64,000 nucleotides of DNA, taken from assembly GCF_056746865.1 (NCBI RefSeq), contig NZ_CM163382.1; one strand, written 5' to 3'. Under the pieces are notes generated by a model. That model was not told the DNA's origin. It worked only from the letters and a program-made list of their open reading frames with translations, and ran no database searches. Within the stretch, counting starts at the first letter, position 1, and the number at the start of each line of letters is the position of its first letter. Of this stretch, positions 1 to 62,258 are shown in pieces. The position numbers were made by a program, and so were the translations under genes.

Positions 1-58
1 ATTTAACAGCACCCCAACCACCGGCAGCTCCCTGGTAGGATTCAATTTTTTTCTTCAT
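1..58 (-). CDS. ydeP: 5' end of ydeP-like oxidoreductase gene (first 19 codons; gene continues past window start)
   Basis: Reverse-strand ATG at 58-56 followed by codons reading MKKKIESYQGAAGGWGAV, which I recognise as the YdeP N-terminus; placement downstream of ydeQ fits K-12 synteny. Confidence 0.45.
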   Translation of the reverse strand, partial: MKKKIESYQGAAGGWGAVK

Positions 59-300
59 TTGCTTATCCTGTGTGGAAATGAATTATTAGGATTTGTAATA
101 GCGATGATGCACAGTATATACAAAGGGATTATCGTCAACATGGATATATAAGAGTAGGGGACTACTCTCTTTCTATTTTAATCTATTATCGTTAAACAAA
201 AGATTAAATACGATAAATTAAGCATCATCTCTCATAGTGTTTAAATTAACATATTTTTCAATATAAAAAATAAGACTCTGGCTTCAATTGTGCGCGGATT

Positions 301-318
301 TTCTTACAGATGTAGGAT
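301..318. promoter_or_regulatory. EvgA-box-like inverted repeat TTCTTACA-ga-TGTAGGAT upstream of ydeP
   Basis: Sequence matches the TTCYTACA-N2-TGTARGAA dyad I recall for EvgA targets; lies about 245 bp upstream of the ydeP start on the same side. Confidence 0.35.
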
Positions 319-390
319 AATAGCCTTCACAAAATAATTATCCGCGCAATCTTCGTGAATGGAGCGCATAGACCAATGTCAAAATCACAA

Positions 391-1305
391 TTATTCATAG
401 ATAAAAGTGACACCAATGACTGACTGGACGGTTCCGGCTGCAACCTTGTTTCCTGTTTGTCCATAGGTTGCGCTTAAACCCAGAGGTACTTTGCTTTTAT
501 TTACTGTCCCCAGGGAGACGTTTTCTCCCGTAGCCAGTATTTTTCCATTACGCATCAGAGAGACACCCACTCCCGATGCTTTTGTTGCATCTGGTGCTGT
601 GTTAGCAAACACTTGTCTGGCACTGTCAGTGGTAGCACCCGAAAGATAAAATGAGAGCTTTTGTTCACTTGAGCAATATACGCCAAGGGGTATTTCTGCG
701 CTTCCAGGAAAGTCCGGGAGATTCACGTTGACATTACGACTATCAACGGTGCAGCCGCCTGTTGGCATAACAACACTGTTATTTGAAATAATATTCCACG
801 TAAAATTACGCGGATTTCCACTTCCTAACGTGGCAATTTTATACATATGAATACGGGCAATAACTTCCCCGGCTTTTATGACAACTCCACCGGCCGCACC
901 GACTGGGGTAATATAGAGTTTTAACGGTAATGGCATCGGTGTCTTATCACCAATATCTAATACATTAGTATTTGTCGTCAACGGGAAGGGGTAGGTCACA
1001 TTATTCCAGTACAGCGATCCTTTATATGACTGTAGAGAGCCTGCGAAAGCTGAGCCTTGTACCAGGTTTATATGATCAGTGTCGTACCAGCCGCCGTAAT
1101 CATTCCAGCAACTTATATGCTGAGACAAGTCTACAACCAGATTCTGGCCCGGTTGTATTACAGGGTCGAGATTAACATAAACAGAGGTTGTACCTGCTCC
1201 AATACTTGACCCGCCATCGACATTACAACTGAAGGCAAAAACTTTGCCTGCCATTAATAGAAGATAAATACCGAACAGAAGCTTCATACTTATTGTTTTA
1301 CCCAT
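391..1305 (-). CDS. ydeQ: fimbrial adhesin-like protein, last gene of chaperone-usher operon
   Basis: 304-aa ORF with N-terminal signal peptide ([18 protein letters not shown]), two-domain adhesin length, terminal position after usher and two minor subunits; start may be the internal Met. Confidence 0.8.
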
Positions 1306-1363
1306 GATATATCCTAAGGTTAAAAAATTGATTTAAAAAGAGGCTAAGAAAATCGAATCGACG

Positions 1364-1867
1364 TTATTGCCAGGTGTAGATCACATTGATTAGCGCCTCG
1401 ATCGTTCCCTGGCTTGCGTTTCCATTCACCGTGATAGCTCTTGCCTTAAGTGGAAACTGTGCATTACGAGTGATCTCATCAACAATAACCGTTTTGCTAT
1501 CGCCATTTTTTAACGTCGCATCCTGGTCATCCCTTAGCTCTATCTGAATATTTTCGGCAGTACCTTCATTTTTGTAATAACCCGTATTGTCAGTTGAACC
1601 TGTCACGATTGCCGTCACTGCACTTGTTTCAACCGGACAATCGGTTAATGACAAAGTAATATTGTGCCAGCCTGATGCAGAACCAGGTTGTTGCAGATTG
1701 CGCGTATAAAGATCCCCGAGATTAACGTTAGCTTCTTTGGTTTGAATAGTGCAGGGTTTAGCGACTACCCGACCATTAACAGTGATAGTGACATCGGCGG
1801 CCTGGAGAGTTGCTGTGAATAACGCGCAAAACGTAGCTAACAGGAACCTCTTGTGAAGTCTTTTCAT
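1364..1867 (-). CDS. ydeR: fimbrial minor subunit
   Basis: 167-aa ORF with signal peptide (…ATLQA) and pilin-like size and composition; operon context. Confidence 0.8.
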   Translation of the reverse strand: MKRLHKRFLLATFCALFTATLQAADVTITVNGRVVAKPCTIQTKEANVNLGDLYTRNLQQPGSASGWHNITLSLTDCPVETSAVTAIVTGSTDNTGYYKNEGTAENIQIELRDDQDATLKNGDSKTVIVDEITRNAQFPLKARAITVNGNASQGTIEALINVIYTWQ

Positions 1868-1879
1868 ATCTGACTCTGA

Positions 1880-2410
1880 TTATTGAAATTCAAGGGTAAA
1901 GGTTGCCGAAGCCCTCACCAGTCCCGGATTGACGGACTTCTGAGTTGACTTCAGACGAGCGGAGTAAGGCAAAATATTGTTCTGTTCTGGTACCAGTGGG
2001 ATCCACTGCATCCCGGCATGAAGGTCATTCAATTTCACCGGACGCATATTTCCGTCCAGTATTTCTATACCCAAACCGGAGGCCGTATTGCTTCCTTCAT
2101 CCAGTTTCAACAGAGTATTATTTTCTGCATCCTCAATCCCGTTAAATGCAACCCGAACCCCCGTTGTCCCTTTACTGCATTCACTTAACGTAATCTGAAA
2201 AGGGACGGCTGGACTTGTGCTACCGGTCGTTGGAAATTGTCTGGCACTGTTTTTTTGGAGATCTACGGTAAAATTAAGCGAATCCGATGAGACTGTGCAG
2301 CCATAATCGAGGACGCGCCCGCTAATTTTAATAACGCTATCTGCGGATAAAGCAGAATAGGTGGTTAACCCCAGACATAAACCGAGGAAAATAATGTTAT
2401 TGTATTTCAT
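1880..2410 (-). CDS. ydeS: fimbrial minor subunit
   Basis: 176-aa ORF with signal peptide (…SALSA), pilin-like; operon context. Confidence 0.8.
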   Translation of the reverse strand: MKYNNIIFLGLCLGLTTYSALSADSVIKISGRVLDYGCTVSSDSLNFTVDLQKNSARQFPTTGSTSPAVPFQITLSECSKGTTGVRVAFNGIEDAENNTLLKLDEGSNTASGLGIEILDGNMRPVKLNDLHAGMQWIPLVPEQNNILPYSARLKSTQKSVNPGLVRASATFTLEFQ

Positions 2411-2423
2411 AATCTATTGTTCC

Positions 2424-5075
2424 TTAGCGACAGATTGCTGTCTGCTGGTTCAGTAAGGTACCAGGAGAAACTTCAGGAAGCTTGTACTCGACAATACAGT
2501 TTGAGTTTTTATCTTTGCCCCATGAAACCTGTAATTTCCCTGACTGTGGAAGTCCAGTCAGATAAACCTGACCGTTTTCCGCGACAATGCTGCCATTTTT
2601 ATTCTTTCCGTGAGTGACAATTGCACCGAATGGAACGCTCTTATTACCGTACTTCAACGTCATTAATACTTTCCCGCCGATTTGTGCATTAAATGTTGCT
2701 CTGGCAATAGCACCGTGAGTTGGGATGACAGTGACCACGGTTTCATCCAGTTCAACATTATCTGCAAGGGAATTCGCGTTAAGAGCGACACGATTTTCTC
2801 TATATTCTGTCGCAAATGGTAATATGGCATAGCCACGCCAGTCGGTATGAATACCGGTCTGGTTCTCTATTTTGACATTATCAGCGCCAGGAGCCTTAAC
2901 CAGAACCATTGTGTCGCCCAGCGGCTGTCCAAAGGTGATGCCATCAGCATGAGCAATAATGCCACCACTCATTCCGTAATAAATCTGGCTGCTGTCACCA
3001 CTCCGACTGTAACCGACATTCGTATTACCGTAAGCTCCACGATAATTAAGAGAACTGTAACCACTGGTGCCAGACGATGTATTACCCCCGTGGGTGTTAC
3101 CGACCTGAACACTATAATTCAGGTTATTATCCGGCAGCAGAGTGCCATAAACTCCCGATAGATTGGTCATGCCGCCTTTCAAATCGTTTGACATACTGTA
3201 ACTGGCGTTTGAATTACGAAATGCCGACTGACTGTCTGTACGCATCCAATGACTGAAGGGAACATTAAGCGTAAAAGCAAGTAAATGATCCCGATCGTTT
3301 TGCCATATATTATTGGAATAGCTGTAATTCAGCGAAGTCGTAATATCACCAAACGGCACATTTAATCCAAATGATATTTGCTGGTCGCTGCGTGACGTGT
3401 TCCAGTAACTTTGGCGACTGGCACTAAAAAATGTCGTACCGTAATTTCCAAGCTGCTGAGAGATGCTTATTTGTTCCTGACCACGCTTACTGTAGAACAG
3501 ATTAAAATAATCAATAAATTGTGTCTGCTCGTTGCTGTCTCCGGTAGGAGGCTTGACGGTGTAACCACTCATTCGACTGTAGGCACTGTCGGATAAGTTA
3601 TAAAAACCTTGCGTAGAATAGCGATATCCTGCGACCTGGATATTGGTTCCCGTCTGGTAGAAGGATTTGCTGTAGACGGATTTAATCGATTGCCCGCTGT
3701 GACGGGTGCCATCTGCAAGTGTCGTATTGGCCTGCGTGATATCGAAAGAAAAGGCACCAAAAAGTCCTAAATCTTTACCAATACCAAGGTTGAAGGCCTG
3801 ATAATCTTCTGCAATTTGCATTCCGCCATAAGGTGTCCAGTTTCCTTCCAGTCCATGCATCAAGCTACCTTGTATGAACTTGGGGGAGCTTTGCAGGTTA
3901 TTTCCACTACGATATTCCCCCATGGCAAGCGCATAACGCGTATATCCAGCACGTTGGAGAACCGGAACAGACGAATAAGGAACATATAATGTCTGAATAC
4001 TGCCGTCTGCCTCTTTTATGGTTACTTGCAGATCACCACCATTGGCCGCAGAGTTGATATCATCAATAGTAAAAGGGCCGGGTGGGACAGTAGTCTGATA
4101 AACATCGTATCCATTCTGTTTTACACTCACTTGTGCGGTGCCGCGGGCAATACCATGAATCACCGGAGCGAAACCATGTTGGCTATCGGGCAACATCGCT
4201 TCTGTTGAATTTATTTTGAGGCCACGAAAGTTCACACTATCAAAAATATCGCCATCGGTATAACTATCACCTACCGTTAAGCGTGAGCGTAAGGGAATAA
4301 TGTCACGTTCAGCCGACGTATTGATATGCTGCCATTTATTGCTGTCAGATGAATTGCTACTCCCACTGTTATAACTCCACGTTGAGTTATCGCGCAGTCG
4401 CCAACTACCAATGTTGATGCCACTCTGTAAATTCAAATATGCATAGTTGGATTTTCCTGCATTATGGTTACTACGATTATTAATAGAATTACCATTAAAA
4501 CTATAGTTTAGAAGCCCAGCATTTATTCCTTCTTCCCACAGATCAGGAGAAACATAGCCGCGAGCCATTCTGCCAACATAAATTTGCGGAACGGAGAGTG
4601 ACAGATGTTGCTGACCAACATCAAACTCAGTTGATGCGTCGGCCAAACGATCCTGAAGTGGTGTGCATGCGCTGTTGTCCGGCACATGTTTTTCTGCCGA
4701 ATGTTCTTTATTGTCTAATAACGCTGATTTTTTTATGCCAAGACTGACTAGAAGATCTGTACTCAGGCATGGGATGAGATCTGCGTTATTATCATCTGCA
4801 ATAAAAGTAATATCCCGACTAGTAATAAATTCGTCGTTCAAATAAATGTCGACCCGATATGTACCAGGTGGTGCCTCGCGTCCCTTAGTAAAGGCGGATA
4901 AATCGACAGATTCAGCAAGATCATTGCTTAAAAACCGTGGATTAAAATAATACTCTGCGTCAACGGGAAATACCGCAGTTGCTAAGCCAAGGGCAATGGT
5001 AAGCCGTGCAAAGCGAGGCAGTAGTAACACCTGATGCATACGATATGCCTTAAATGCGGCACGAAAGGCTGTCAT
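2424..5075 (-). CDS. ydeT: fimbrial outer-membrane usher (FimD/PapC family), apparently full length
   Basis: 883-aa ORF, Asn/Ser/Tyr/Gly-rich beta-barrel composition and usher length; follows chaperone gene; true start may be internal Met 13. Confidence 0.85.
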   Translation of the reverse strand: MTAFRAAFKAYRMHQVLLLPRFARLTIALGLATAVFPVDAEYYFNPRFLSNDLAESVDLSAFTKGREAPPGTYRVDIYLNDEFITSRDITFIADDNNADLIPCLSTDLLVSLGIKKSALLDNKEHSAEKHVPDNSACTPLQDRLADASTEFDVGQQHLSLSVPQIYVGRMARGYVSPDLWEEGINAGLLNYSFNGNSINNRSNHNAGKSNYAYLNLQSGINIGSWRLRDNSTWSYNSGSSNSSDSNKWQHINTSAERDIIPLRSRLTVGDSYTDGDIFDSVNFRGLKINSTEAMLPDSQHGFAPVIHGIARGTAQVSVKQNGYDVYQTTVPPGPFTIDDINSAANGGDLQVTIKEADGSIQTLYVPYSSVPVLQRAGYTRYALAMGEYRSGNNLQSSPKFIQGSLMHGLEGNWTPYGGMQIAEDYQAFNLGIGKDLGLFGAFSFDITQANTTLADGTRHSGQSIKSVYSKSFYQTGTNIQVAGYRYSTQGFYNLSDSAYSRMSGYTVKPPTGDSNEQTQFIDYFNLFYSKRGQEQISISQQLGNYGTTFFSASRQSYWNTSRSDQQISFGLNVPFGDITTSLNYSYSNNIWQNDRDHLLAFTLNVPFSHWMRTDSQSAFRNSNASYSMSNDLKGGMTNLSGVYGTLLPDNNLNYSVQVGNTHGGNTSSGTSGYSSLNYRGAYGNTNVGYSRSGDSSQIYYGMSGGIIAHADGITFGQPLGDTMVLVKAPGADNVKIENQTGIHTDWRGYAILPFATEYRENRVALNANSLADNVELDETVVTVIPTHGAIARATFNAQIGGKVLMTLKYGNKSVPFGAIVTHGKNKNGSIVAENGQVYLTGLPQSGKLQVSWGKDKNSNCIVEYKLPEVSPGTLLNQQTAICR

Positions 5076-5116
5076 TATTAATTCCGATTGAGTTTATTAT
5101 TAATTAGGTCACTGGC

Positions 5117-5836
5117 TTACTGCATGGTTGCCTTAATACGCGGAGTTAATGCACCGTAATCATTGATCGTCTGAAAACTGATATCCCCGGTTGCAGCATG
5201 CGGGATATCCACCGATACTTCACCTTTTGGCGGCACCATGGTGTTTGGGAGATTGCTATTTCCTGCTTTCATATTTGTTACGGTAATGAAGTAGGGCGTT
5301 GGATTAATAAGAGTGAGTTTGCTGCCGCTGCGACGAAACCGAAGCATTGCAGGCGCTTCTTCAGGTGCCATTGCCAGGTTCGTGGGGCGATAAAACATTT
5401 TTATGCGGCTAATAATTGCCAGCTGTAATGTATTCTCATTCTTCTGATCTTTTTCCATAGCAGGAATAGCTTTAACATTAACCCAGAACAGGCTTTCACG
5501 GTCGCCTGGTAACTGATGATTAGTGGCGTTGATTATCCGCAGCGTATTCTCTTTTTTACCTTGCATGGAAAAAAGCGGTGGCGTAATGACAAACTGGGTG
5601 TCTTTTTGGTCACCTGCATTTTCTATCCATGACTGAATGAGATAGACACTGGCAGGATCATTATTCGTGACAGGCAATAAAACCTGTTTCTGGTTTGCCG
5701 GATAAATTACCCGCGTCGCACCCAGTGCGACAGCTGCGTTGGCAATGGTGCTATGGCAAGCAAAGAGCAATAAAAGTAACACTGTCGCCATAAAGGAAAT
5801 AGAGTAGGGGGTACGCGTAGTTTGCATCTGATGCAT
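5117..5836 (-). CDS. periplasmic fimbrial chaperone (PapD/FimC family)
   Basis: 239-aa ORF with signal peptide and chaperone-like length between major subunit and usher; start probably internal (MATVLLLLLFAC…). Confidence 0.8.
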   Translation of the reverse strand: MHQMQTTRTPYSISFMATVLLLLLFACHSTIANAAVALGATRVIYPANQKQVLLPVTNNDPASVYLIQSWIENAGDQKDTQFVITPPLFSMQGKKENTLRIINATNHQLPGDRESLFWVNVKAIPAMEKDQKNENTLQLAIISRIKMFYRPTNLAMAPEEAPAMLRFRRSGSKLTLINPTPYFITVTNMKAGNSNLPNTMVPPKGEVSVDIPHAATGDISFQTINDYGALTPRIKATMQ

Positions 5837-6189
5837 TCTCCATGTGTTAAGAGGATAAGCGGGAAAACCGTTACATCAGACAATCAGTAAATATTGCTAA
5901 TACATTGGCGACTCGCCGGGTTTCCAGACTTAATGCGTTTGTAATAAATGTTGGTTCTCTTTTAATAGGAAAACCTTGCTACAAAGTAAATATTTTAAAT
6001 AACAGTAAGTTTAACTACTGTTGTTTATTGATCGTTTAGATATTATGTGATTTTTTCATACCGCTCCAAAACACAAACTATTCCTCATTAATAATGAGAT
6101 GAACATTGGTGAATTGCTCGGGTGTGCGTAGCCATGCCACACACACCCTGTTTCAATTTCAGATGACGTATAGCCACCTTAAGATTGAA

Positions 6190-6753
6190 TTATAGATATT
6201 GAACTTTGAAGGTCGCATCAGCGTTTGCAGTACCAGCTACTGACTGCCCGAGAGCAATATATCGAGCCTGGAACGGCAATATATTCGTGCCATCAATCAA
6301 GTCAGTTTTAGCACTAAAAGTGGCACCATCAAGTATTAATACCTCACCCGTACGGTCCAAAATTTGAATACCGACATTTTGGGCAGAGCCTGCCGCTGAA
6401 CTCTGCAGCGCTAACGTATCGTCATTACTGGTGACAGTAGTACCCAGGAATGCAACAGCTGCATTACTGGAAACATTGGTATCACAATCATTCAGCTTGA
6501 TATTGAAGCCAACGGCGGAGCTGAGGTCACCCGCTTTAGCCAGACGAGAAGAACGGACCTGACCCAGCTCAACCGTTTGGTTCATTGATTCTGAATCAAT
6601 CGCACAAGCGGCATTTACCACTTCACCTTTAAAATGAATAACACCGCCATTAACAGTGGTCGTTACTGATTCATCACCCTCGGCTGCGCTTACCGCAGCA
6701 GACGACATCGCCAACACAGAAACGACAATCATACCGACATGTTTGAGTTTCAT
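6190..6753 (-). CDS. major fimbrial subunit (FimA-like pilin)
   Basis: 187 aa from ATG at 6753 with GGAG RBS; signal peptide ending SAAVSA; C-terminus ATFKVQYL resembles type-1 pilin termini; first gene of the operon. Confidence 0.75.
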
Positions 6754-7186
6754 AATTCTCCAAAATTTATATTTAAGTAGCTTAATAAAGAAAGTTAACA
6801 ATCAAGTCATTCTGTTATTGCTTATAAAACAAGAATCATTCTTGATGGGATATTGCCCTGAGAATATAGTTTCCAGGGTTATTACATTTCACGAAGAACG
6901 ATAATATCTTTAAATTACAAGGACACCTAATCACAACAAGTTTATTGCAGCACTTGTTGTAGAGAGTATTTGCAAAGACATTTTATGTCGCTAAATAACA
7001 TTACGATTTCATTATGCATGTTATTTATAAACAGCGACTAAACAGAATATTATTGCGAACAAGGGAAGTGTCAGGAAAGGTCAAGAGTTACTAATGGTTT
7101 ATATGGCTAAAAATCATTAGCTATGGTTAATGTTTGCTTTCTGAAACTAACGCCAAATTGCTCTAACCAGATAAATGCAGGGTTTA

Positions 7187-7441
7187 TTAAAGCTGATCGA
7201 CAGACTTTCTTAACCTGGCAATATCTCTCTTAGGTGACTCTCCAAACATCCGCGAATATTCCCGACTGAAATGGGATAAGCTTTCGTAACCGACAGCATA
7301 GGCTGCAGTGGTGACATCGTAATGTTCATTCAGCATCAGTCGCCTGGCTTCATTGAGGCGTAGCCATTTCTGATACCGGAGTGGACTCATTCCCGCAAGC
7401 TGTCTGAAGTGTTGATGGAAAGAGGGTGTGTTCATTTGCAC
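7187..7441 (-). pseudogene. yneL: C-terminal fragment of AraC-family transcriptional regulator (HTH only)
   Basis: 84-aa ORF carrying only the second AraC HTH (…YESLSHFSREYSRMFGESP…); no in-frame N-terminal domain upstream. Confidence 0.6.
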
Positions 7442-7721
7442 GCGGTTTGCCAGCCTGACTCTTCAACGCAGGGAAGATGCGGCAAACGGCAAACCTGCAT
7501 ACCAGCCAGCCTATATCCGGTATGCACAGGCCAATCATGAAAGAGGAGAGGCTTTATGTTCTGGAACCCTGAAGTAATAACGACGACCGTAAAATCGCTT
7601 CGCATCACTCAAATTCCATTTAACTATTCTGGGTTTGAGGGATATACATAATTGACTTCAGCACCAGAAACAGCATAACAAACTGTTTTAAATGGATATT
7701 AATCAAATGACGATTCAAACT

Positions 7722-7756
7722 CACAGTTATGAACTCAGTTTTGGTTCATAACTGTG
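7722..7756. repeat. perfect 13-bp inverted repeat CACAGTTATGAAC / GTTCATAACTGTG with 9-nt spacer
   Basis: Read directly from sequence; a related palindrome GTTCATGAAC-TGTT occurs at 7797-7810. Confidence 0.6.
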
Positions 7757-7855
7757 TTAAACGCTGTCCATAAATCACTCGATGTCACGTCTGTTGGTTC
7801 ATGAACTGTTCGTTCTAATGTTGTGATGTGCGTCAGGTTTTGGTGTTCAGTAATA

Positions 7856-8659
7856 TTACGTTTTACTCGATGAGCGATTGATTAATACCTCTCCGACAAC
7901 AGGAGCAGCGGTAAATGCGTTTGGCCAGCCAGCGTAAAACGCGGCTTGGGTAACGATCTCCCCAGCTTCCTCAGCAGAAAGTCCATTATCCATCGCTCTG
8001 TTAAGGTGATAGCCAATCTGCGCGCTCTGTCCAGATGCGATTAACGCGCTGACCGTAATCAGGCTTCTATCACGGGGGGTTAGCGCGGGTCTTTGCCAGA
8101 GATCCAGGAACAGTGGGTCAGCAGTAAATTTAACCAAGCCTGGAGATATTCGGCCAACATTTTTTTCCACTGTCTCTGAACGCTGCTTTTCTGCTTCCTG
8201 ATTGAGAGGAAGCAGGTCCGGAGAAGCGTCAGGAAGCGCATCTGGCGTGACGCCACGAGTTTCAAATACTGCTTTGGTCACGCTGACGGCTGACATTGCA
8301 TTTGGCCAACCTGAGTAGAACGCCAGATGGGTAATGATTTCTGATAATTCCGCTGGCGTCACGCCGCTATCGAGAGCGACGTCAATATAGTGCTTAAGCT
8401 CGGCAGGCTGGTTGCGGGCAATCAGCATGGCGACGGTCACCACACTACGATCCCTCGGTGAGAGGGCGTCGCGTGTCCACAGATCTTCAGTAATAGCTTC
8501 GCGACCAAAGCGCGCGAGAGCCGGTGAGACGGAACGAATATCAGCTTCCGAAATCGCTGACGGTTCTATTTTCATCATAGCTTTACCTCTTGTTTCCTCA
8601 GCATTGGCAAAATCAGAAATAACAAGCGACATAGCCGCTGCTGCAAGTACGCTTTTCAT
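7856..8659 (-). CDS. secreted tandem carboxymuconolactone-decarboxylase (CMD / AhpD-like) family protein
   Basis: 267-aa ORF with signal peptide; two repeats each carrying the CMD-type motif (ITHLAFYSGWPNA and VTQAAFYAGWPNA). Confidence 0.65.
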   Translation of the reverse strand: MKSVLAAAAMSLVISDFANAEETRGKAMMKIEPSAISEADIRSVSPALARFGREAITEDLWTRDALSPRDRSVVTVAMLIARNQPAELKHYIDVALDSGVTPAELSEIITHLAFYSGWPNAMSAVSVTKAVFETRGVTPDALPDASPDLLPLNQEAEKQRSETVEKNVGRISPGLVKFTADPLFLDLWQRPALTPRDRSLITVSALIASGQSAQIGYHLNRAMDNGLSAEEAGEIVTQAAFYAGWPNAFTAAPVVGEVLINRSSSKT

Positions 8660-8674
8660 GTTAATCCTTACTGG

Positions 8675-9400
8675 TCAACGTTGCGGCTCCTGTTTGATTC
8701 CGCCTTTGTTACGAAGAAATACCGGTTTTACCGGGATTGCGTCCTTCCTGGCGCTCATATGCGCCGTTTGCCTGAGGTAATCCAGGAAGTGCAGCGTTTG
8801 TCGGTGCAGTTGATAATCCTCCTCACTGGCGTAAATCTCATAGAAATACCAGCGTTTTGGAGTCTCTGAATCTGTACCGGCATACATGGCTAACACGCCT
8901 TTCTCTACTTTGAGCGACTCGACCATTTCAGGAAGGACGATGTTTCTAAATTCGCTCTGAAATTCAGGCTTTACTTCGACGATCACCAGATTATTGATAG
9001 TTCGTTCATTCGGTATGATGTGTTTGTCGCCCAGAAACTGTGGCTCCAGGGTAATTTTCTTCTTACTGTCAATAATGTCAGGTGCACGAGCAGCGAATGC
9101 TTTGTATGGGGCGGCATTGAGATGTTTGCGATAAGCACGCTCATTTTCATAGAGTTCGAACATGAATGCCTGACCTGAATTGTCGCTGCGTTGCAGGGCA
9201 TACATCGCCAGTGTACCTGCTTCATGATCAACCGAAGCGGAAATCGTCTGTCTGGCCACGTCTGCAAAGTCGTTGTCCCGATCGGGTCTGATGCCGAGCT
9301 CGAAGATATTCATCTCCGGCTTATTCGGCGCGTCCGGTTTTGTTGCAAAGACAGGGCTGCTTATTAGCATGCAAATTAAAAGCATAAAAGTCTTTTTCAC
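8675..9400 (-). CDS. secreted protein with two ABM (antibiotic-biosynthesis-monooxygenase-like) domains
   Basis: 241-aa ORF with signal peptide (MKKTFMLLICMLISSPVFA); two ~100-aa repeats with ABM-like pattern (AMYALQRSD…FMFELYENE / AMYAGTDSE…YFYEIYASE). Confidence 0.5.
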   Translation of the reverse strand: MKKTFMLLICMLISSPVFATKPDAPNKPEMNIFELGIRPDRDNDFADVARQTISASVDHEAGTLAMYALQRSDNSGQAFMFELYENERAYRKHLNAAPYKAFAARAPDIIDSKKKITLEPQFLGDKHIIPNERTINNLVIVEVKPEFQSEFRNIVLPEMVESLKVEKGVLAMYAGTDSETPKRWYFYEIYASEEDYQLHRQTLHFLDYLRQTAHMSARKDAIPVKPVFLRNKGGIKQEPQR

Positions 9401-9515
9401 GATGATCTTTTTACTGACATTACTGTTTAAGACGTTCGATCAACTGGTGCTGGTAAGAACGTAACCGACCGCTACTGGCGCTCTCAAAGACGAGAGGAGG
9501 AAAAGTGAATAAGGG

Positions 9516-10535
9516 CTATCGCATCCAGACCTGCTTAACATCTTTCGTTTGCGGCGTATTTTGCGCCATGATCCCCGTCAGAACATGCGGCTGGTAGGTT
9601 TCTTCCAGAAACTGAATTTCCTCCGGACTTAGTTGAAGATTTACTGCGTTTACCGCGCCATCGACATGAGCTTTTTTTGTAGCCCCTACGACAGGTGATG
9701 TGACTTTTGTCAGCAGCCAAGCGAGAGATATTTCCGTCATTGACACCAGATGGCGTTCGGCCAGTTCGGCTACACGCTCAATAATGCTGCGATCCTGTTC
9801 AGCCGTGCTGTCATATTTTCCACGCGCATAGTCATCCTCTGTGGCTCGCCGTGTATAGCCTTCTTTACGAGAGAGGCGGCCGCTGGCCAGCGCGCTATAG
9901 GGGGTCATTGCGATATTATCCTCAGTGCACAGGCCGAAGAGCTCCCGTTCATCTTCGCGCATAATTAGATTGTAGTGGCTCTGTACGGAAACAAAGGGCG
10001 TCAGCCCTTCGCGTTCAGCAAGGGCGTTCGCCTTCGCCAGCTGCCAGGCATAGCAGTTTGAAATACCAACAGCTCGTACTTTGCCAGCAGTAACAGCGGT
10101 ATGTAACGCTTCAAGCACGTCGATAATGGGCGTGTTGTAATCCCAGATGTGGTAGATGTAGAGGTCGATATAGTCCATCCCCAGATTCTTCAGGCTCTGG
10201 TCAAGGGATTGAGCGATTGCCTCTTTTCCGCTGATCCCTCCGGCAATTTGTGCGGGGGTTCGCGGCAGAAACTTGGTGGCCAGGACGATATCATCGCGTT
10301 TCGCCATCTCCCGTAATGCCCGGCCAACGTATCGCTCACTGGAGCCATTCTGGTAGGCTATAGCGGTATCGTAAAAGTTGATGCCCTTTTCAAGGCCATA
10401 GCGAATGATGTCGCGGCTTGCTGTTTCGTCCAGCGTCCAGCTATGCTGACCCGTCGACGGATCGCCAAACCCCATGCATCCCATGCAGATGCGGGAAACA
10501 AGTAAGTCACTTTTACCGAGCCGGGTATACTGCAT
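9516..10535 (-). CDS. aldo-keto reductase family oxidoreductase
   Basis: 339-aa ORF; N-terminus MQYTRLGKSDLLVSRICMGCMGFG and overall pattern typical of AKRs (Tas/YajO-like). Confidence 0.8.
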   Translation of the reverse strand: MQYTRLGKSDLLVSRICMGCMGFGDPSTGQHSWTLDETASRDIIRYGLEKGINFYDTAIAYQNGSSERYVGRALREMAKRDDIVLATKFLPRTPAQIAGGISGKEAIAQSLDQSLKNLGMDYIDLYIYHIWDYNTPIIDVLEALHTAVTAGKVRAVGISNCYAWQLAKANALAEREGLTPFVSVQSHYNLIMREDERELFGLCTEDNIAMTPYSALASGRLSRKEGYTRRATEDDYARGKYDSTAEQDRSIIERVAELAERHLVSMTEISLAWLLTKVTSPVVGATKKAHVDGAVNAVNLQLSPEEIQFLEETYQPHVLTGIMAQNTPQTKDVKQVWMR

Positions 10536-10537
10536 TG

Positions 10538-11110
10538 TTATTCTCCCTCTGGATTATTCACGACGGAATTGAGCAGTTCGACAAGCCTTGAAGCGTGTTC
10601 CCGGGCAAGCGTTTTTTGCTGCGCGATTTTGTCGGCATCCCGGTCGGCATAGCTGATACCGCAGGTATAAACCGGCGCCAGCAGCTCAAGATTGCACAGC
10701 CTTGCCGTGGTTTCGAACGGAATAAGATACTCTTCAATGGTATGGCCAAAGAAACTGTCGACGGTATAGAGCTCCTCTGGCGCTCCCGTTGTAAAGGAGA
10801 GGATCAGCTTTTTACCGCCCAGTTTCGCCGTTGAGCCATGCGCGAAGCCGTGAACAAAGACCTCGTCCAGCCATTTTTTCATTAATCCTGGCAGCCCATA
10901 CCAGGAAAAAGGGAACTGCCAGACAATCACATCGGCCCTGAGCAGGCTTTCCTGCTCCGCCGCGATGTTGAATTTGCCATCCGGATAGAGCCTGTCCAGA
11001 CGACGAATCTCAACATCAGGAAGGGCGGTCTCCACTTCATCAAGAATAGTGGCATTGGCGACGGAATGGGTAAGCTCAGGATGACCTGAAATAACAAGGA
11101 TATTTTTCAT
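10538..11110 (-). CDS. flavodoxin-like NAD(P)H:quinone oxidoreductase family protein
   Basis: 190-aa ORF beginning MKNILVISGHP…, resembles Flavodoxin_2 / KefG / MdaB-type quinone reductases; 2-bp gap to upstream AKR gene. Confidence 0.65.
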   Translation of the reverse strand: MKNILVISGHPELTHSVANATILDEVETALPDVEIRRLDRLYPDGKFNIAAEQESLLRADVIVWQFPFSWYGLPGLMKKWLDEVFVHGFAHGSTAKLGGKKLILSFTTGAPEELYTVDSFFGHTIEEYLIPFETTARLCNLELLAPVYTCGISYADRDADKIAQQKTLAREHASRLVELLNSVVNNPEGE

Positions 11111-11260
11111 TTCAATCAGTTAAACATCTTTGGTGAATATTAAATCCAGTATAGAGTGACAACATTATTTTTTTAGAGCAGTAAAGGCTCATTCACTTTT
11201 AGGCAAAAACTAATAATTGTCGGCTGATCACAATGTGCTCAGTCATCATGAAACGGTGAA

Positions 11261-11938
11261 CTAAACCGTGATGCCCAGTAAACGTTCTGCATTGCGAAAC
11301 GCGATGGCCTCTTTTTCAGCCTTGTTGACGGGCAGACTGTCTATAAAGGTTTTTACACCGTCCAGGGTCTGATAGGGATAATCGACGGAGAACAGGATCC
11401 TTTCAGCACCCATTAACGCGTAGATAAACTGGAAGTGCGGCAGTGTTAGCATATGACGGGGTAACGTAAACGTGTTCCTGGAAGGTTCTCGTTAGCGTGC
11501 GTGACAGACCCGTTGCAGCCAGTGGCAGGCTGTCATCAAGACGCTGGAGCCAGAAGGGTAACATCTCACCCCAGTGGCCACTGATTACCTGCAAGTGGGG
11601 ATATTTATCAAATGCACCCGATAACATCAGCCGCAACAAATGGATCCCCGCTTCGTGATGCCAGCCCCAGGCAAACATAGAAAGCCTGGAGTTGACCTCT
11701 GCGCTGAAGCCCGTGAAGTAGGCCTGCTGTACGCTTTTAAGCGGTAACCCGGGATGAAGATAGAGTGGCACATTCAGTTTATTAAAGCGGGAAAGCAGGG
11801 AGTCGGTCAGGATTATGACCATCAGCGACGGTTTTCCCCCAGTCGCCAAGGAAAGGTGCCTGCTCAAGCGCAACAGGCATACACGCTCGCCCTAACTCGC
11901 TGTCGAGATAATTTTCTTCGAGGCAAATGATTTTCATA
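11261..11938 (-). pseudogene. amidohydrolase-family gene disrupted by at least two frameshifts
   Basis: Three consecutive reading frames carry pieces: MKIICLEENYL… (from ATG 11938), then …ISGHWGEMLPFWLQRLDDS…, then …FSVDYPYQTLDG…; metal-dependent amidohydrolase-like motifs but no single intact frame. Confidence 0.5.
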
Positions 11939-12039
11939 TTCTCACCATTCATACAAAGCAGTAAAAGTGATACAGATTAGAATCACCCGGAACAGCCCGT
12001 TCGTGTGTGTCATTCATGACAGTCTGTTCCGGACGGGCT

Positions 12040-12987
12040 TTACACCATCGGTTTTTCCCAGGCGCCTCGTGTATCCACTCTGGTCTCTGCGGCGAGTTGT
12101 TCCAGCAGGATGATTTCCTCATCGCGTAACTGGATGTCTGAAGCGCAGGCGGCGTCCAGAACGTGATGGACTTTAGTCGCACCAACGAGGGGAAGGGTAC
12201 CTTTCGCAATAGCCCATGCGATGGCTATCTGTGCCACGCTGGCATTCCTTTCGGCTCCCATTTTTTTCATGGCGGCGGTTAGTCTTTCTATCTGCGGCAG
12301 TACTGCGTTATAACTTTCGGCCCGGCCACTCCCGGCAGGCATGGGATGATTTGAATCATAACGACCACTGAGCGCGCCTTGCTCCAGGACCATGTAAGCA
12401 AAGAACGTGATGTTATTTTGTCGGCAATAATCAAGGATCCCGGCCTCTTCAGAAGCGCGATAGAGCAGGCTGTAGTGATTTTGTACTGCACTGAGGGAAT
12501 AACCGGAAGCGTTAAGGATTTCATTGGCGCGTCTGATTTGTGCCAGATTGTGGTTGGAAACACCTACGCGTTTTACCTTACCGCTTTGTAAAAGTGGGAT
12601 CAGTCCTGGTGTCCATTTTTCGACGTCGAGGGGATTATGGATCCAGTAGATATCAATCGCGTCCACGCCCAGGCGCCCAAGGCTGGCCTCAAGCATATCG
12701 CTGACAGGCTGCGCAGACTGCTTGTCCGCAATCTGCGGCGTGAATTTGGTGGATAAAATTATGTTCTCGCGGGGAAACTGACGGACTAATGCTCCCAGCG
12801 CAGTCTCGGAACTCCCCATACCATATACTGCTGCGGTATCCCAGAGATTGAGGCCCTTACTCATGGCCGCAGTGAACACTTCTGCCATCTGAGTATCAGA
12901 AAGATGATTACCAAAGACGGTGTCGCCGCCGGCAAAGCCTGTGCCCCAGGACCATGTACCTAGTGCGACTGGAGGTAGTGTTTTCAT
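12040..12987 (-). CDS. aldo-keto reductase family oxidoreductase (second copy)
   Basis: 315-aa ORF with AKR-like N-terminus and overall pattern. Confidence 0.75.
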   Translation of the reverse strand: MKTLPPVALGTWSWGTGFAGGDTVFGNHLSDTQMAEVFTAAMSKGLNLWDTAAVYGMGSSETALGALVRQFPRENIILSTKFTPQIADKQSAQPVSDMLEASLGRLGVDAIDIYWIHNPLDVEKWTPGLIPLLQSGKVKRVGVSNHNLAQIRRANEILNASGYSLSAVQNHYSLLYRASEEAGILDYCRQNNITFFAYMVLEQGALSGRYDSNHPMPAGSGRAESYNAVLPQIERLTAAMKKMGAERNASVAQIAIAWAIAKGTLPLVGATKVHHVLDAACASDIQLRDEEIILLEQLAAETRVDTRGAWEKPMV

Positions 12988-13060
12988 ATTCAGCTCCTGA
13001 AAAAAGGCCGGATCGTGGCTGACTTAAACCGGCCAAGTAAGGTGAGTAACGATGAATTAA

Positions 13061-13762
13061 TTAAGCTGTCCGGCGGAGTGCATTTAACAGCGCCACACCA
13101 ACCCCATGTGCTGAAGCGGGATTCTGCCCCGTGATAAGGCGATCGTCGGTAACCACGTTTTCAGACCAGTTTGGAGCTTCATGATAAAGCGCACCATGCT
13201 CGCGAAGTGCGGTTTCAAGCAGGAAGGGAACCACATCTGTTGTGTGAACTTCTTCCTCTTCCTTGTTGGTAAAGGCCGCCACATTTTTCCCTTTTATCAG
13301 GTATTCGCCGCTACTGAGTTTTGCGTCAACCAATGCCGCAGGCCCGTGGCAGACGGCTGAGACAATCCCATCACTTTCATACACTTCGCGGATAATACGC
13401 TGGGCATCCTGATTATCACGGAAATCCCACATGGTCCCATGACCACCTGCAAAGAAAACTGCGCTGTAATCGGCACCTTTCAGCTCGGATAACGCAGGTG
13501 TTGTTGCCAGGCGCTGCTGAAAATCGGTTTCGTTCCAGTACCAGGCGTTAACAGGGTCGCTGAGGTCAAATCCATCCACCGGTGGCTGCCCCCCGCGAAT
13601 ACTGGCTATTGTTGTTTTTATTCCGGCATCTTCCAGTACTTTCAGCGGATGAGTCAGCTCGGCCAGGAAAAAACCGGTTGGTACACCGGATGCGCCTTTA
13701 ATCGGATGGCTGGAAACGACACATAGCACTGGTTTATATGCAGGTTTCATATCGGTCCTCAC
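13061..13762 (-). CDS. DJ-1/PfpI (class I glutamine-amidotransferase-like) family protein
   Basis: 233-aa ORF with nucleophile-elbow-like motif AVCHGP; GAGG RBS before ATG 13762; start overlaps upstream gene stop by 4 bp (ATGA). Confidence 0.65.
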   Translation of the reverse strand: MRTDMKPAYKPVLCVVSSHPIKGASGVPTGFFLAELTHPLKVLEDAGIKTTIASIRGGQPPVDGFDLSDPVNAWYWNETDFQQRLATTPALSELKGADYSAVFFAGGHGTMWDFRDNQDAQRIIREVYESDGIVSAVCHGPAALVDAKLSSGEYLIKGKNVAAFTNKEEEEVHTTDVVPFLLETALREHGALYHEAPNWSENVVTDDRLITGQNPASAHGVGVALLNALRRTA

Positions 13763-14070
13763 TCTTTATTTTTAAATTCATCGGCGAAGAGATTTTCCCA
13801 GTTAATAAAGGAGCCAAGCGGTATACACTCGAAGCTTAGTAAGCCTGCTTTTGCCAACGGGAATTCGGCCATAACGTTCATCGCTTCATCGACAGAGTCA
13901 CATTCAAGAAAAATAGCGACGCCAGGTCTGTCCTGACGGAAGTAGATGTCGCGGATGAAGCCTGATTTATACAATCCCCAGGCGTGCAGCGCTTCAGCGT
14001 TGAGGTGCGGAGCATATTTCTCCAGCGATGCTCCAGGGGCAGGGATATCCAGACATAAAATTCGCATCAT
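13759..14070 (-). CDS. small muconolactone-isomerase-like protein
   Basis: 103-aa ORF; resemblance to muconolactone isomerase pattern is weak and by eye only; first gene of the co-oriented cluster. Confidence 0.35.
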   Translation of the reverse strand: MMRILCLDIPAPGASLEKYAPHLNAEALHAWGLYKSGFIRDIYFRQDRPGVAIFLECDSVDEAMNVMAEFPLAKAGLLSFECIPLGSFINWENLFADEFKNKE

Positions 14071-14206
14071 AGTCTCCTGAACTCAGGTCGTAGTAGAAAG
14101 AGACTAAAGTATAAGAGGCGTATTTCAGGAAGATTAGAGGGTCATTGACTTAAGCATTTTTAGACTGTACTTAATAATCAGGCGAGAATTGCTTTAGGAA
14201 AACATT

Positions 14207-15106
14207 ATGAATAACGCTCTTTATAACCAGATTCGCATCTTCCAGAGCATTGCGCGGGAGGGCAATATTTCGGCAGCCGCAAGGAAACTGGAAATTACGC
14301 CTCCCTCCGTCAGCAATGCACTAAAGCTGCTGGAAGAGTATATCGGTCATCCGCTTTTTGTGCGTACGACCCGCCGTATAGAGCTGACGGAAACCGGTCA
14401 ATTATTGCTGGAACAGACCGCTGCGGCGGTGGAGTCGCTGGAAAACTCACTTGAAAGCATTCGCGACCAGCATCAGGAGCCCTCAGGGATGGTGCGAATT
14501 ACGCTCTCGCGTTTTGCCTACCTGTTAATTCTTAAGCCTGCGATGGCAGAATTCTGTCAGCAATATCCGGGTATACAGTTAGAAATTTCGGTCTACGACG
14601 GTACCGTGAATATCATCAAAGAGCGTTTTGATCTGGGGATCCGTTTTGGCGATATTCTTGAGGGAGGGGTGGTGGCCCGACCGTTAATGAAACCGTTTCG
14701 TGAAGGATTATATGCATCCTCAGCGTATCTCTCCCGACATGGAACGCCTGAAGTGCCGGCAGATCTCTGTCATCACCAGCTGATTGGTTACCGTTTTATC
14801 ACCAACAACCGCATCCTTCCGCTGCTCCTGAACGATCGCGGTGAGCAGTTGACCGTTGAGATGCCGGGGCAGTTAATCAGCAACGATATTGACGTTATGG
14901 CAGACGGGATCCGTAACGGGCTGGGAATTGGGCGCTTGTTTGAGCCTGTCTGGCAGTTACAGCCGGACAGGGAGCGCTTTATTCCGGTGATGGAGAGCTA
15001 CTGGAAAACCTACCCGCCAGTGTATCTCTATTACCCCAAAAACGCGGGTAAAACGAAAAGAGTGAAGGCCCTGATTGATTTTCTGATATCCACTACGGGG
15101 CGATAA
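14207..15106 (+). CDS. LysR-family transcriptional regulator, divergent from the cluster
   Basis: 299-aa ORF with N-terminal HTH (…ISAAARKLEITPPSVSNALKLLEEYIGHPLFVRTTRRIELTETG…) and LysR substrate-binding-domain length. Confidence 0.85.
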   Translation: MNNALYNQIRIFQSIAREGNISAAARKLEITPPSVSNALKLLEEYIGHPLFVRTTRRIELTETGQLLLEQTAAAVESLENSLESIRDQHQEPSGMVRITLSRFAYLLILKPAMAEFCQQYPGIQLEISVYDGTVNIIKERFDLGIRFGDILEGGVVARPLMKPFREGLYASSAYLSRHGTPEVPADLCHHQLIGYRFITNNRILPLLLNDRGEQLTVEMPGQLISNDIDVMADGIRNGLGIGRLFEPVWQLQPDRERFIPVMESYWKTYPPVYLYYPKNAGKTKRVKALIDFLISTTGR

Positions 15107-15503
15107 AGACGATAACGCCTCGTTCGGTATGGAGATGCATCGAATGGCATTGTGAGTTTTTTTTCACAGATGGGCGTAATCGTCAGTGGATTTTACATAC
15201 AAGGATAGCGCCCACATACTGACATCATTAATTAACGTTGGGTGAGGTTTACCGGGGGGAGGGGAAAGCGAACCAGGAGATGGAGGTGGCCAATCTGGTA
15301 CGAACCGCCGCGTAGCTTGCACGGCAAAAGCTGCTGACTGATTCATCAGTTAAGCTACTGAAAGAGCGGAACACATGAACTTAAGAACAAACCCACCATA
15401 TTTAACATAATATACATTATGCGCACCAACATAAACCAAGGGAGAATCCAGTCGTTGGCGGTCATGATTGTCCTGCTCATTAACAACGGCCAAACCCCAT
15501 ATC

Positions 15504-16826
15504 TTACTTAATACCGTATTCTCGGCTTAAGCGACGGTGCAACCTCAACACATTGGTTTCAACTGCCGTCACCACGTTCTCCGGAAAATCTGTCGGTAAT
15601 GAAGTCTTCACGTTATCCAGTGCTGCCGGAATCATTCTGGCAAAGTCACTCAGGATTTCATGCATCTGCACTTCCGGAAATTTCAGCACCTTTGCTGTCG
15701 CCAGAAAATGTCGCGGATAAATTTTATCGATTGCCGTTTTTTTGCCTTTGGATGCGTTAAGCCCCATTGCCAGTTTGAGATCGCTGATGTGTATTCCTGC
15801 GCCACCCAATACCGGAAATGCTGAAATGATGTCGTAAAATGGCGTGAGTCGATAACTGCCGCCAGCCTGAATAAATACGGAGAAGTTTTTTGCATGGCCA
15901 TCCGTTGCGCCAATCAACCACTGGAACACCTGAAACTTCATAAAATCATAGCGATCTTTCAGCGCCTCGCTGGACCCCATCAAAAAAGCCATGATCCGCG
16001 CGATGCCTGGGCCTCCATCTGATTCATATTTCACCGATGAAGGTAAACCGAATGTCTGACACATATCCTCCTGTGGCAAGCGAAGTAAAACCGTTCGCTC
16101 AGCATTCCAACGCCTGTCAAAACGTTCGACCGCTAACGCGCGCACATTTCCCGCTTTAATGATTTCTGCGTCCGGCACATTCAACCCAAGTTCTTTCGCC
16201 AGCAGCAGACAGTAATACTCATTATCAACGCTTTGGCTGAGATCGAGCGTCGCATTGGGCTGCCTGATTTCGCCAATCGGTAATTTAATGATGTGCGTCG
16301 TCGGCGTTATTCCTTTCGGAATGCACCAGTCATTGCCTATTCTGAGCAGCGCTGTCTTCTCCTGCGCGCCAGCAACCGAGATGCGAAAGTCATTTTCTTC
16401 TCTAATCATGCCCAGAGGGATATCTGCTTTATAAGCCGTTAATACTTCTTCAAGTCTGGCTTCAGTAAGCTTTTCCCATGCCATTATCGGATGCGTTACG
16501 GTTTCGTCTTCGGGTATTAACGTCACGGCACCAACGCTGTCTCGCCCTATTTCTGACAATAAATCAAACGGTTGTCTGGATTTGGCATGATAACGTTTAA
16601 CGATCCGGTCACGTACAATCGGGCTATCGGGTAACAGGTTATCGAAGAAGTTAAATACGGCATCAGAGGTGATATTCCCCCTCTGCAATGGCAGCGAAAG
16701 TGATAACGGTCTGGCATAACGGTTGGCTAACCACTCCGGTGCATACTTAAAGGTGTGCGCGCCATTGGCTAACTTCGTTAACTCGCCTACCCGCTGGTTG
16801 TTCATCCAAGTGACAAGTTTAGGCAT
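15504..16826 (-). CDS. hipA: HipA serine/threonine kinase toxin of the HipBA toxin-antitoxin module
   Basis: 440 aa from internal start MPKLVTWMNNQRVGEL (ORF track extends 19 codons further upstream); start overlaps hipB stop by 1 nt. Confidence 0.9.
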   Translation of the reverse strand: MPKLVTWMNNQRVGELTKLANGAHTFKYAPEWLANRYARPLSLSLPLQRGNITSDAVFNFFDNLLPDSPIVRDRIVKRYHAKSRQPFDLLSEIGRDSVGAVTLIPEDETVTHPIMAWEKLTEARLEEVLTAYKADIPLGMIREENDFRISVAGAQEKTALLRIGNDWCIPKGITPTTHIIKLPIGEIRQPNATLDLSQSVDNEYYCLLLAKELGLNVPDAEIIKAGNVRALAVERFDRRWNAERTVLLRLPQEDMCQTFGLPSSVKYESDGGPGIARIMAFLMGSSEALKDRYDFMKFQVFQWLIGATDGHAKNFSVFIQAGGSYRLTPFYDIISAFPVLGGAGIHISDLKLAMGLNASKGKKTAIDKIYPRHFLATAKVLKFPEVQMHEILSDFARMIPAALDNVKTSLPTDFPENVVTAVETNVLRLHRRLSREYGIK

Positions 16827-17092
16827 TACCACTCCAGATCTTGCTGTTCTGTTGATTCTGGCGAGGCATTTTTCGTGTCGCATAGCGTCATTGAGAGTTC
16901 AAGCGACTGTAAAATCTTAAAAAATGTCGTCAGCGTGGTATTGTCAGGATTGTTTTCGAAATTGGAAATTGTCGCCTGCTTAATACCGATTTTTTTCGCC
17001 AGCTCGCTCTGCGTCCAGCCATTTTGCTGACGAACCAGTTTCATTGCATTCGCTAATTGCGTTGGGCTATAGATCTTCTGAAAGCTCATCAT
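16826..17092 (-). CDS. hipB: HipB antitoxin / Xre-type repressor
   Basis: 88 aa from MMSFQKIYSPTQLANAMKLVRQQNGWTQSELAKKIG…; HTH motif; immediately upstream of hipA. Confidence 0.9.
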   Translation of the reverse strand: MMSFQKIYSPTQLANAMKLVRQQNGWTQSELAKKIGIKQATISNFENNPDNTTLTTFFKILQSLELSMTLCDTKNASPESTEQQDLEW

Positions 17093-47635: not shown

Positions 47636-47860
47636 TTTAAGTCGAACACAATAAAAATTTAATTCAGCCTTCGTTTAGGTTACCTCTGCTAATATCTTTC
47701 TCATTGAGATGAAAATTAAGGTAAGCGAGGAAACACACCACACCATAAACGGAGGCAAATAATGCTGGGTAGACTGGCCCCCTGAATCTCCAGACAACCA
47801 ATATCACTTAAATAAGTGATAGTCTTAATACTAGTTTTTAGACTAGTCATTGGAGAGCAG

Positions 47861-49089: not shown

Positions 49090-49220
49090 GGGCAAATCCA
49101 CTGGGTAATATGAATGTTTTTATGGCCGTACTGGGAATAATTTTATTTTCTGGTTTTCTGGCCGCGTATTTCAGCCACAAATGGGATGACTAATGAACGG
49201 AGATAATCCCTCACCTAACC

Positions 49221-49260
49221 GGCCCCTTGTTACAGTTGTGTACAAGGGGCCTGATTTTTA
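49221..49260 (+). terminator. Rho-independent terminator downstream of mgtS
   Basis: 10-bp perfect stem GGCCCCTTGT / ACAAGGGGCC with 11-nt loop followed by TGATTTTTA. Confidence 0.75.
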
Positions 49261-62256: not shown

Positions 62257-62258
62257 CA

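Follow-up and report, generated by a model that had tools for sequence, protein, structure and literature searches.

An intact F9 (Fml/Yde) chaperone-usher pilus operon between ydeP and hipBA in Escherichia coli and its relationship to the truncated K-12 locus

Results

Organisation and integrity of the operon

The window, i.e. the whole 64,000-nucleotide stretch of DNA that was analysed, carries a six-gene F9 operon on its minus strand (positions 391–6753), and none of the six open reading frames (ORFs) contains an internal stop codon. The genes encode a major pilin, a PapD-like chaperone, an 883-aa usher, two minor pilins and a two-domain adhesin, an order which agrees with the published description of F9 (PMC3966885), and successive genes are separated by gaps of 362, 41, 13, 12 and 58 nt. 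Expected Pfam domains were identified in all six proteins, each passing its gathering cut-off with the exception of the C-terminal pilin domain of the adhesin (23 bits against 25.6), and the pilins have hydrophobic N-termini and, in their mature form, a single pair of cysteines each. The preliminary description of this DNA had proposed a complete chaperone-usher operon of uninterrupted ORFs, and this is borne out by the Pfam families, which are those of pilins, chaperone and usher, and by the lack of any overlooked disruption of the six ORFs.

Collinearity with the annotated strain 118UI and with MG1655 places the 3′ end of ydeP at 1–58 and hipA/hipB at 15504–17092, so that the order at this site is ydeP, the operon, a variable block and hipBA. 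The same locus and gene order are found in CFT073 (c1931–c1936; the Fml pilus, FmlA–FmlH), and alignment to this F9 operon, which had been suggested at the outset, showed the six proteins to be 97.7–98.9% identical. All six are equal in length to their counterparts in CFT073, in O157:H7 86-24 and in one APEC O1 strain, with protein identities of 98.4–100% in the case of the enterohaemorrhagic strain 86-24.

Structural subunits and assembly proteins

The major pilin (6190..6753, 187 aa; Pfam Fimbrial, 8e-31), labelled ‘fimA’ by PGAP, is counted from the ATG that was chosen in the preliminary description, the mechanical ORF reaching to a TTG at 6801. It is identical to the major pilin of O157:H7 86-24 and 98.4% identical to that of CFT073, and its nearest structures are those of FimA, aligned over the full length. 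The periplasmic PapD/FimC-like chaperone (5117..5827, 236 aa, or 239 aa from an alternative ATG at 5836) comprises PapD_N and PapD_C domains; its best matches in the PDB are FimC and SfaE (about 1e-88), the alignment to FimC is full-length, and the equivalents of FimC Arg8 and Lys112 are retained (arginine within ALGATRVIYP and lysine within IISRIKMFYRP). The outer-membrane usher, a full-length ydeT (2424..5075, 883 aa), contains PapC_N (4e-46), Usher (8e-200) and PapC_C (1e-21) domains, aligns from end to end with FimD structures (1146–1160 bits) and displays 98.0% identity to the usher of CFT073 (18 substitutions). Of the two minor pilins, that in the FimF-like position (ydeS; 1880..2410, 176 aa; Pfam Fimbrial, 3e-22) is 98.9% identical to its CFT073 counterpart and 100% identical to that of O157:H7 86-24, and that in the FimG-like position (ydeR; 1364..1867, 167 aa; Pfam Fimbrial, 1e-9) is 98.8% identical to the CFT073 protein.

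The tip adhesin

The last gene (391..1305, 304 aa) encodes the tip adhesin, known as YdeQ, FmlH or the F9 adhesin, in which a signal peptide (residues 1–24) is followed by a lectin domain (25–184) and a pilin domain (approximately 185–304), corresponding to Pfam matches to FimH_man-bind at 27–171 (6e-78) and to Fimbrial at 185–302. Residues 25–184 are identical to crystallised FmlH at 160 of 160 positions (PDB 6AOW), the lectin domain likewise matches 5LNE at 100%, and the residues F1, Y46, D53, K132, N140 and R142, which belong to the galactoside pocket as defined for FmlH (PMC5866590), are all present. Compared with the CFT073 protein (97.7% identity), all seven differences fall in the signal peptide or the pilin domain, i.e. 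outside the lectin domain.

Promoter, leader and upstream DNA

In CFT073 the transcription start site was mapped by 5′-RACE to a position 251 nt upstream of the ATG, and the published −35, −10 and start site G (PMC3966885) recur base for base at 7040–7004 in the window, at an equal distance from the ATG. The f9 promoter (7011..7040, minus strand) thus consists of a −35 TAGTCG (7040–7035), an 18-nt spacer and a −10 CATAAT (7016–7011), and the start site at 7004 is followed by a 5′ leader of 251 nt (6754..7004, minus strand; 29.5% G+C) that ends at the ATG at 6753. This promoter is kept in all lineages aligned, K-12 included, with a single change in the −35 of O157 (TAGTCA). The window and CFT073 share 287 of the 300 nt upstream of the ATG (13 differ), and the DNA beyond approximately −150 varies among lineages. 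A scan for consensus sigma-70 promoters and terminators gave counts no higher than those obtained from shuffled sequences and missed the mapped f9 promoter, which is attributed to its weak −35 and not to the absence of a promoter.

The region 6754–7186 had been singled out beforehand as AT-rich and typical of promoters silenced by H-NS. The composition was confirmed, as its G+C content is 31.2%, compared to 48.3% for the window as a whole, and only 0.27% of 433-bp windows are equally AT-rich. In CFT073, H-NS was shown to bind the f9 upstream region in gel shift experiments and to repress the operon, as judged from an hns deletion (PMC3966885), and by analogy with these data H-NS probably silences the AT-rich upstream region of the operon described here.

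The only inverted repeat that brackets the promoter (15 nt, 93% complementary; 6997–7011 and 7312–7326) was considered as a possible fimS-like switch, but was rejected as a chance repeat. When the intervening 300 nt were flipped in silico, the resulting promoter-spanning query matched none of 5,426 genomes over at least 80% of its length. Additionally, one arm of the repeat lies inside an AraC-family fragment and is missing in B2 strains, and the repeat carries an extra mismatch in other lineages.

This AraC-family fragment (7187–7453) comprises in frame approximately 88 codons that encode the C-terminal helix-turn-helix, with stop codons before them. It was evaluated as an intact AraC-type regulator and rejected as such, since the in-frame part covers the helix-turn-helix only; it is instead a pseudogene that corresponds to K-12 yneL. 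The flanking block at 7397–15396, 8 kb of oxidoreductase/LysR genes, also differs from CFT073, where the flank consists of an SDR oxidoreductase and LysR remnants, and the upstream flank in O157 ends in a hipA fragment.

The spacer downstream of the major pilin gene

The major pilin and chaperone genes are separated by a non-coding spacer of 362 nt (5828..6189, minus strand; 36% G+C), which contains no fimI-like gene and, on the operon strand, no ORF that reaches 60 aa, and which displays a mean column identity of 97% across the four lineages aligned. Within it, 41 nt past the stop codon of the major pilin gene, lies an inverted repeat predicted to form an RNA hairpin with a stem of 13 pairs and a loop of 3 nt (6120..6148, minus strand). 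The 101-nt fold has a predicted energy of −38.2 kcal/mol (z = −5.7), and the hairpin is not followed by a run of T residues. Its sequence is unchanged in the four lineages, so that covariation could not lend it support. An Rfam scan of the whole window matched a single element, the STnc560 sRNA at 49187–49400, and nothing in the operon or close to it.

The K-12 deletion

Comparison of the window by blastn with a K-12-like sequence (L002) and with MG1655 (L006) delimited the interval that is missing from K-12 MG1655 to 3651..6932. This 3,282-bp deletion, the junction of which displays 1 nt of microhomology, eliminates the greater part of the 5′ leader together with the entire major pilin and chaperone genes and usher codons 1–475. 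At the orthologous locus K-12 still carries the promoter along with the initial 72 nt of the leader, intact genes for the adhesin and both minor pilins (ydeQ, ydeR and ydeS; 97.4–99.4% identical to those of the window) and a 5′-truncated ydeT in which the last 408 usher codons survive; this agrees with the preliminary description, according to which K-12 keeps only ydeQRS and a partial ydeT. As K-12 lacks the major pilin, the chaperone and the N-terminal half of the usher, assembly of a fibre is not possible. The K-12 state is a single, defined deletion that spares the promoter.

Distribution among E. coli genomes

Sequences covering at least 80% of the operon, irrespective of the integrity of their ORFs, were found in 3,598 of 5,426 complete genomes (about two thirds), and the exact K-12 deletion junction was found in 1,381 (about a quarter). 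The urine isolate 118UI and strain M7424 are 100% identical to the window over 391–7050. Furthermore, the commensals IAI1, SE11 and SE15 are known to carry intact F9 (PMC3966885). The intact locus had initially been equated with the F9-type fimbriae of pathogenic E. coli: the F9 identity stands on the strength of the proteins, the lectin domain and the promoter, but the association with pathogens does not, as intact F9 represents the majority state and not a pathogen trait. Published work already describes the patchy distribution of F9 and its disruption in phylogroup A and K-12.

Discussion

Gene integrity, domain content, near-identity to studied alleles, identity of the promoter and the limits of the K-12 deletion were all directly observed, and we conclude, with a probability of approximately 95%, that positions 391–7040 represent the intact F9 (Fml/Yde) chaperone-usher pilus operon of the E. 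coli core genome, a close paralogue of the type 1 fimbriae. F9/Fml fimbriae are a known system, already characterised through genetics, structures and infection models, and the operon described here is a real but ordinary representative.

It could be argued that the ORFs are open in an operon that is nonetheless dead or permanently cryptic, owing to missense changes or altered upstream DNA, and that the locus is an early pseudo-operon on its way to the K-12 state. F9 has repeatedly been lost in E. coli through deletions and IS insertions, and its expression is undetectable in wild-type CFT073 at 37 °C (PMC3966885); additionally, the operon is preceded upstream by a decayed AraC-family fragment, and the studied strains have a different flanking block. 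However, the six full-length proteins share no less than 97.7% identity with alleles that have been shown to produce fimbriae, fibres having been demonstrated on the cell surface for the CFT073 allele (PMC3966885), functional references have the same lectin domain and core promoter, and the operon sequence is shared in full by 118UI and M7424, rendering a dead or permanently cryptic operon very improbable.

The proposition that the operon is the type 1 (fim) operon or a duplicate thereof, with mannose binding and an invertible switch, is suggested by the PGAP names ‘fimA’, ‘fimF’ and ‘fimG’ on matching records, by the RefSeq name of the major subunit, by the Pfam assignment of the N-terminal adhesin domain to FimH_man-bind and by FimC, FimD and FimA being the closest solved structures of the chaperone, usher and major pilin, yet it is refuted by an adhesin that is only 49% identical to FimH in a full-length alignment (45% in the lectin domain) as opposed to 100% identical to FmlH in the lectin domain, by a position between ydeP and hipBA and not at fim, by the absence of adjacent fimB/fimE genes, by a non-coding spacer in the place of fimI and by the failure of the inverted promoter segment to match any genome. 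The two systems do belong to the same class and sub-clade of assembly machinery, with the same order of chaperone, usher, two adaptors and a two-domain tip adhesin, but F9 possesses a galactoside pocket where type 1 fimbriae possess a mannose pocket (PMC5866590), and fimI, fimB/fimE and the invertible fimS element of the fimAICDFGH system are absent from the F9 locus. Unlike the type 1 switch, control of F9 is exerted by H-NS and temperature (PMC3966885).

With F9 identity accepted, two features might still have a part in regulation. The invariant hairpin at 6120..6148, in the unusually long spacer that follows the major pilin gene, may constitute an undescribed F9 element for transcript processing, stability or partial termination, through which major pilin would be made in large excess of the assembly proteins, as is known in the case of papA; alternatively, the lineage-specific upstream block, with the AraC-family pseudogene and 8 kb of redox genes with a LysR regulator, might rewire f9 control in this lineage. 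We consider it rather doubtful that either is the case.

On the model of the characterised F9 systems, transcription would start from the sigma-70 promoter at 7040–7011 and proceed through the AT-rich leader, with H-NS presumably silencing the operon at 37 °C and expression appearing at about 20–28 °C, as in CFT073. As the DNA beyond approximately −150 varies among lineages and the neighbouring block is not that of CFT073, regulation could differ in detail. The six products would be exported by Sec, after which the FimC-like chaperone would cap each pilin by donor-strand complementation and the FimD-like usher would polymerise the subunits by donor-strand exchange, probably beginning with the adhesin, continuing with the two adaptor pilins and ending with a rod of major pilin. 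The FmlH tip is expected, from the literature, to bind terminal beta-galactosides, namely Gal(beta1-3)GalNAc and Gal(beta1-3)GlcNAc, and may also recognise plant xyloglucan, as the O157 adhesin does; such binding would mediate low-temperature biofilm formation and colonisation of the kidney and the inflamed bladder.

These findings are of use for annotation, as the K-12 lesion can be recorded as one promoter-sparing deletion carried by about 25% of complete genomes, and as the name ‘type 1 fimbrial major subunit FimA’, under which RefSeq lists the first gene of the operon, is misleading. For the strain itself, the sequence suggests a presumably functional FmlH-tipped pilus, at which both galactoside anti-adhesives and vaccination would be aimed.

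Identification of the fimbrial operon

The window derives from the E. coli chromosome and is collinear with the urine isolate 118UI (99.996% identity over 47.7 kb). A mechanical ORF list revealed six ORFs without mutual overlap on the minus strand between positions 391 and 6801, to which Pfam domains were assigned as follows: an adhesin (391–1305, 304 aa; FimH_man-bind, 6e-78, and Fimbrial), two minor pilins (ydeR, 1364–1867, 167 aa, and ydeS, 1880–2410, 176 aa; Fimbrial in each), an usher (2424–5075, 883 aa; PapC_N, Usher, 8e-200, and PapC_C), a chaperone (5117–5836, 239 aa; PapD_N and PapD_C) and a major pilin (6190–6753, 187 aa; Fimbrial). The six-gene fimbrial operon proposed in the preliminary description is thus borne out, at the coordinates given there, by both ORF content and domains. 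The mechanical ORF of the major pilin reaches a TTG at 6801, the ATG at 6753 being the choice of both the preliminary description and RefSeq, while RefSeq starts the chaperone at an ATG at 5827 (236 aa). The intergenic gaps are 362, 41, 13, 12 and 58 nt, and the pilins carry hydrophobic signal peptides and a single cysteine pair apiece.

Direct comparison used the uropathogenic strain CFT073, in which F9 (Fml) fimbriae were characterised. All six proteins are equal in length to their CFT073 counterparts, with identities of 97.7% (adhesin), 98.8% (ydeR), 98.9% (ydeS), 98.0% (usher), 98.7% (chaperone) and 98.4% (major pilin); the seven differences in the adhesin comprise four in the signal peptide and three in the pilin domain. 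Identity to the operon proteins of O157:H7 strain 86-24 is 98.4–100%. Furthermore, adhesin residues 25–184 match the crystallised lectin domain of the tip adhesin FmlH at 160/160 positions (PDB 6AOW, 5LNE), and every residue known to contact galactosides in FmlH is retained (F1, D53, K132 and N140, with Y46 and R142; PMC5866590). In the f9 promoter as published (PMC3966885), 18 nt separate a −35 TAGTCG from a −10 CATAAT, and transcription starts at a G located 251 nt before the ATG; the window matches all of this exactly, with the −35 at 7040–7035, the −10 at 7016–7011 and the G at 7004 (=6753 + 251). The operon is therefore F9/Fml; the finding is real and its initial interpretation as F9 was correct, although the system itself has been described in detail before.

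RefSeq names the first operon gene ‘type 1 fimbrial major subunit FimA’. Type 1 (fim) identity was rejected, as the adhesin shares only 49% identity with FimH, falling to 45% across the lectin domain, the ORF list and collinear annotation place no fimI, fimB or fimE at the operon, and in silico inversion of the segment between 6997–7011 and 7312–7326, the sole inverted repeat bracketing the f9 promoter, yielded a match over at least 80% of its length in none of 5,426 complete genomes.

The K-12 lesion and the variable upstream region

The operon is flanked by ydeP (1–58) and the hipBA region (15504–17092). MG1655 (K-12) is annotated here with ydeP, ydeQ, ydeR, ydeS, a truncated ydeT, the yneL pseudogene and hipA/hipB, and its blastn matches cover 1–3650, 6932–7396 and 15397 onward. 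Since these matches break at 3650 and resume at 6932, K-12 lacks 3651–6932 (3,282 bp; one nucleotide of junction microhomology), confirming the remnant previously suspected in this strain. The missing segment holds both the major pilin and the chaperone, together with usher codons 1–475 on one side and the leader from about +73 on the other; the f9 promoter and first 72 nt of the leader are retained.

An 8-kb block (7397–15396) that separates hipA from the f9 promoter region is likewise missing from K-12. It encodes a carboxymuconolactone-decarboxylase (CMD)-family protein, a quinol monooxygenase, two aldo/keto reductases, an NAD(P)H oxidoreductase, a split amidohydrolase, a glutamine-amidotransferase-like protein and a LysR regulator. 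Different DNA occupies this position in O157:H7 86-24, an APEC O1 strain and CFT073; the block represents one form of the ‘variable 5′ region’ noted in PMC3966885. An AraC-family helix-turn-helix fragment at 7187–7453 (minus strand), the counterpart of yneL, retains only the C-terminal 84–88 codons, preceded by stop codons, and ends at lineage-dependent points (about 7167, 7396 and 7624 in the window).

Promoter, leader and a conserved hairpin

With regard to regulation, the analysis covered base composition. The AT-richness noted earlier for 6754–7186 is evident, with a G+C content of 31.2% (29.5% in the leader, 6754–7004) versus 48.3% for the window, a level as low as that of only 0.27% of 433-bp windows. 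CFT073 shares 287 of the 300 nt preceding the major-pilin ATG. In CFT073, H-NS binds the 251-bp promoter fragment and keeps f9 repressed at 37 °C; F9 fibres and biofilm emerge at 20 °C (PMC3966885).

A 13-pair hairpin (6120–6148) that is not followed by a T-run lies in the 362-nt spacer 3′ of the major-pilin gene; the surrounding 101 nt fold at −38.2 kcal/mol (z = −5.7). The hairpin is unchanged across four lineages and therefore yields no covariation evidence. With papA mRNA processing as the model, it may act as a stabiliser or a partial terminator of the major-pilin transcript.

Assembly and receptor

The chaperone, usher and major pilin align along their entire length with structures of FimC, FimD and FimA, respectively. 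Residues equivalent to Arg8 and Lys112, the anchors of the subunit C-terminus, are conserved in the chaperone. By analogy with the established Fim and Pap systems, the chaperone would stabilise each subunit by donor-strand complementation, and donor-strand exchange at the usher would then join adhesin, adaptors and rod. Reported ligands are Gal(β1-3)GlcNAc for F9 fimbriae (PMC3966885), Gal(β1-3)GalNAc for FmlH, a contributor to chronic urinary tract infection (PMC5866590), and plant xyloglucan for O157 F9 (PMC7766294).

Other features of the window

An ECSE_1600-family autotransporter (17303–22723, minus strand, ~1,806 aa) appears intact by collinearity with 118UI, from which it differs by single bases at 18842 and 19764; in K-12 (yneO) and O157:H7 86-24, a frameshift has turned the orthologue into a pseudogene. 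A 1.33-kb insertion (47772–49100), absent from the otherwise near-identical 118UI, encodes ORFs of 136 and 301 aa, presumably IS2 InsC/InsD. The insertion point lies 10 nt inside mgtS, a small-protein gene (ATG at 47762) that is therefore disrupted in this strain. At gathering threshold, Rfam yields a single match in the window, the Hfq-binding sRNA STnc560 (49187–49400, minus strand; RF01407, 281 bits). Collinearity with 118UI also predicts a Qin-like prophage remnant (ydfK, pinQ invertase, tfaQ and a tail-fibre gene) and an IS200-family transposase at about 59000–64000.

Distribution of F9

Over 1–9000, the window and strain 98232 (NZ_CP173446.1) are 100% identical; the match in 98232 is ~1.96 kb longer than the query and annotated with IS100 (IS21-family istA/istB), indicating more IS traffic in or near the locus. 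The operon and promoter (391–7050) are covered to at least 80% in 3,598 of the 5,426 genomes. Since IS-split copies were joined and frameshifts are unseen, this figure is a maximum for intact copies. The exact K-12 junction occurs in 1,381 genomes, and the other lesions found comprise IS insertions and different deletions. The link to pathogenic E. coli drawn in the preliminary description needs refining: intact F9 is the common state and no pathogen-specific trait.
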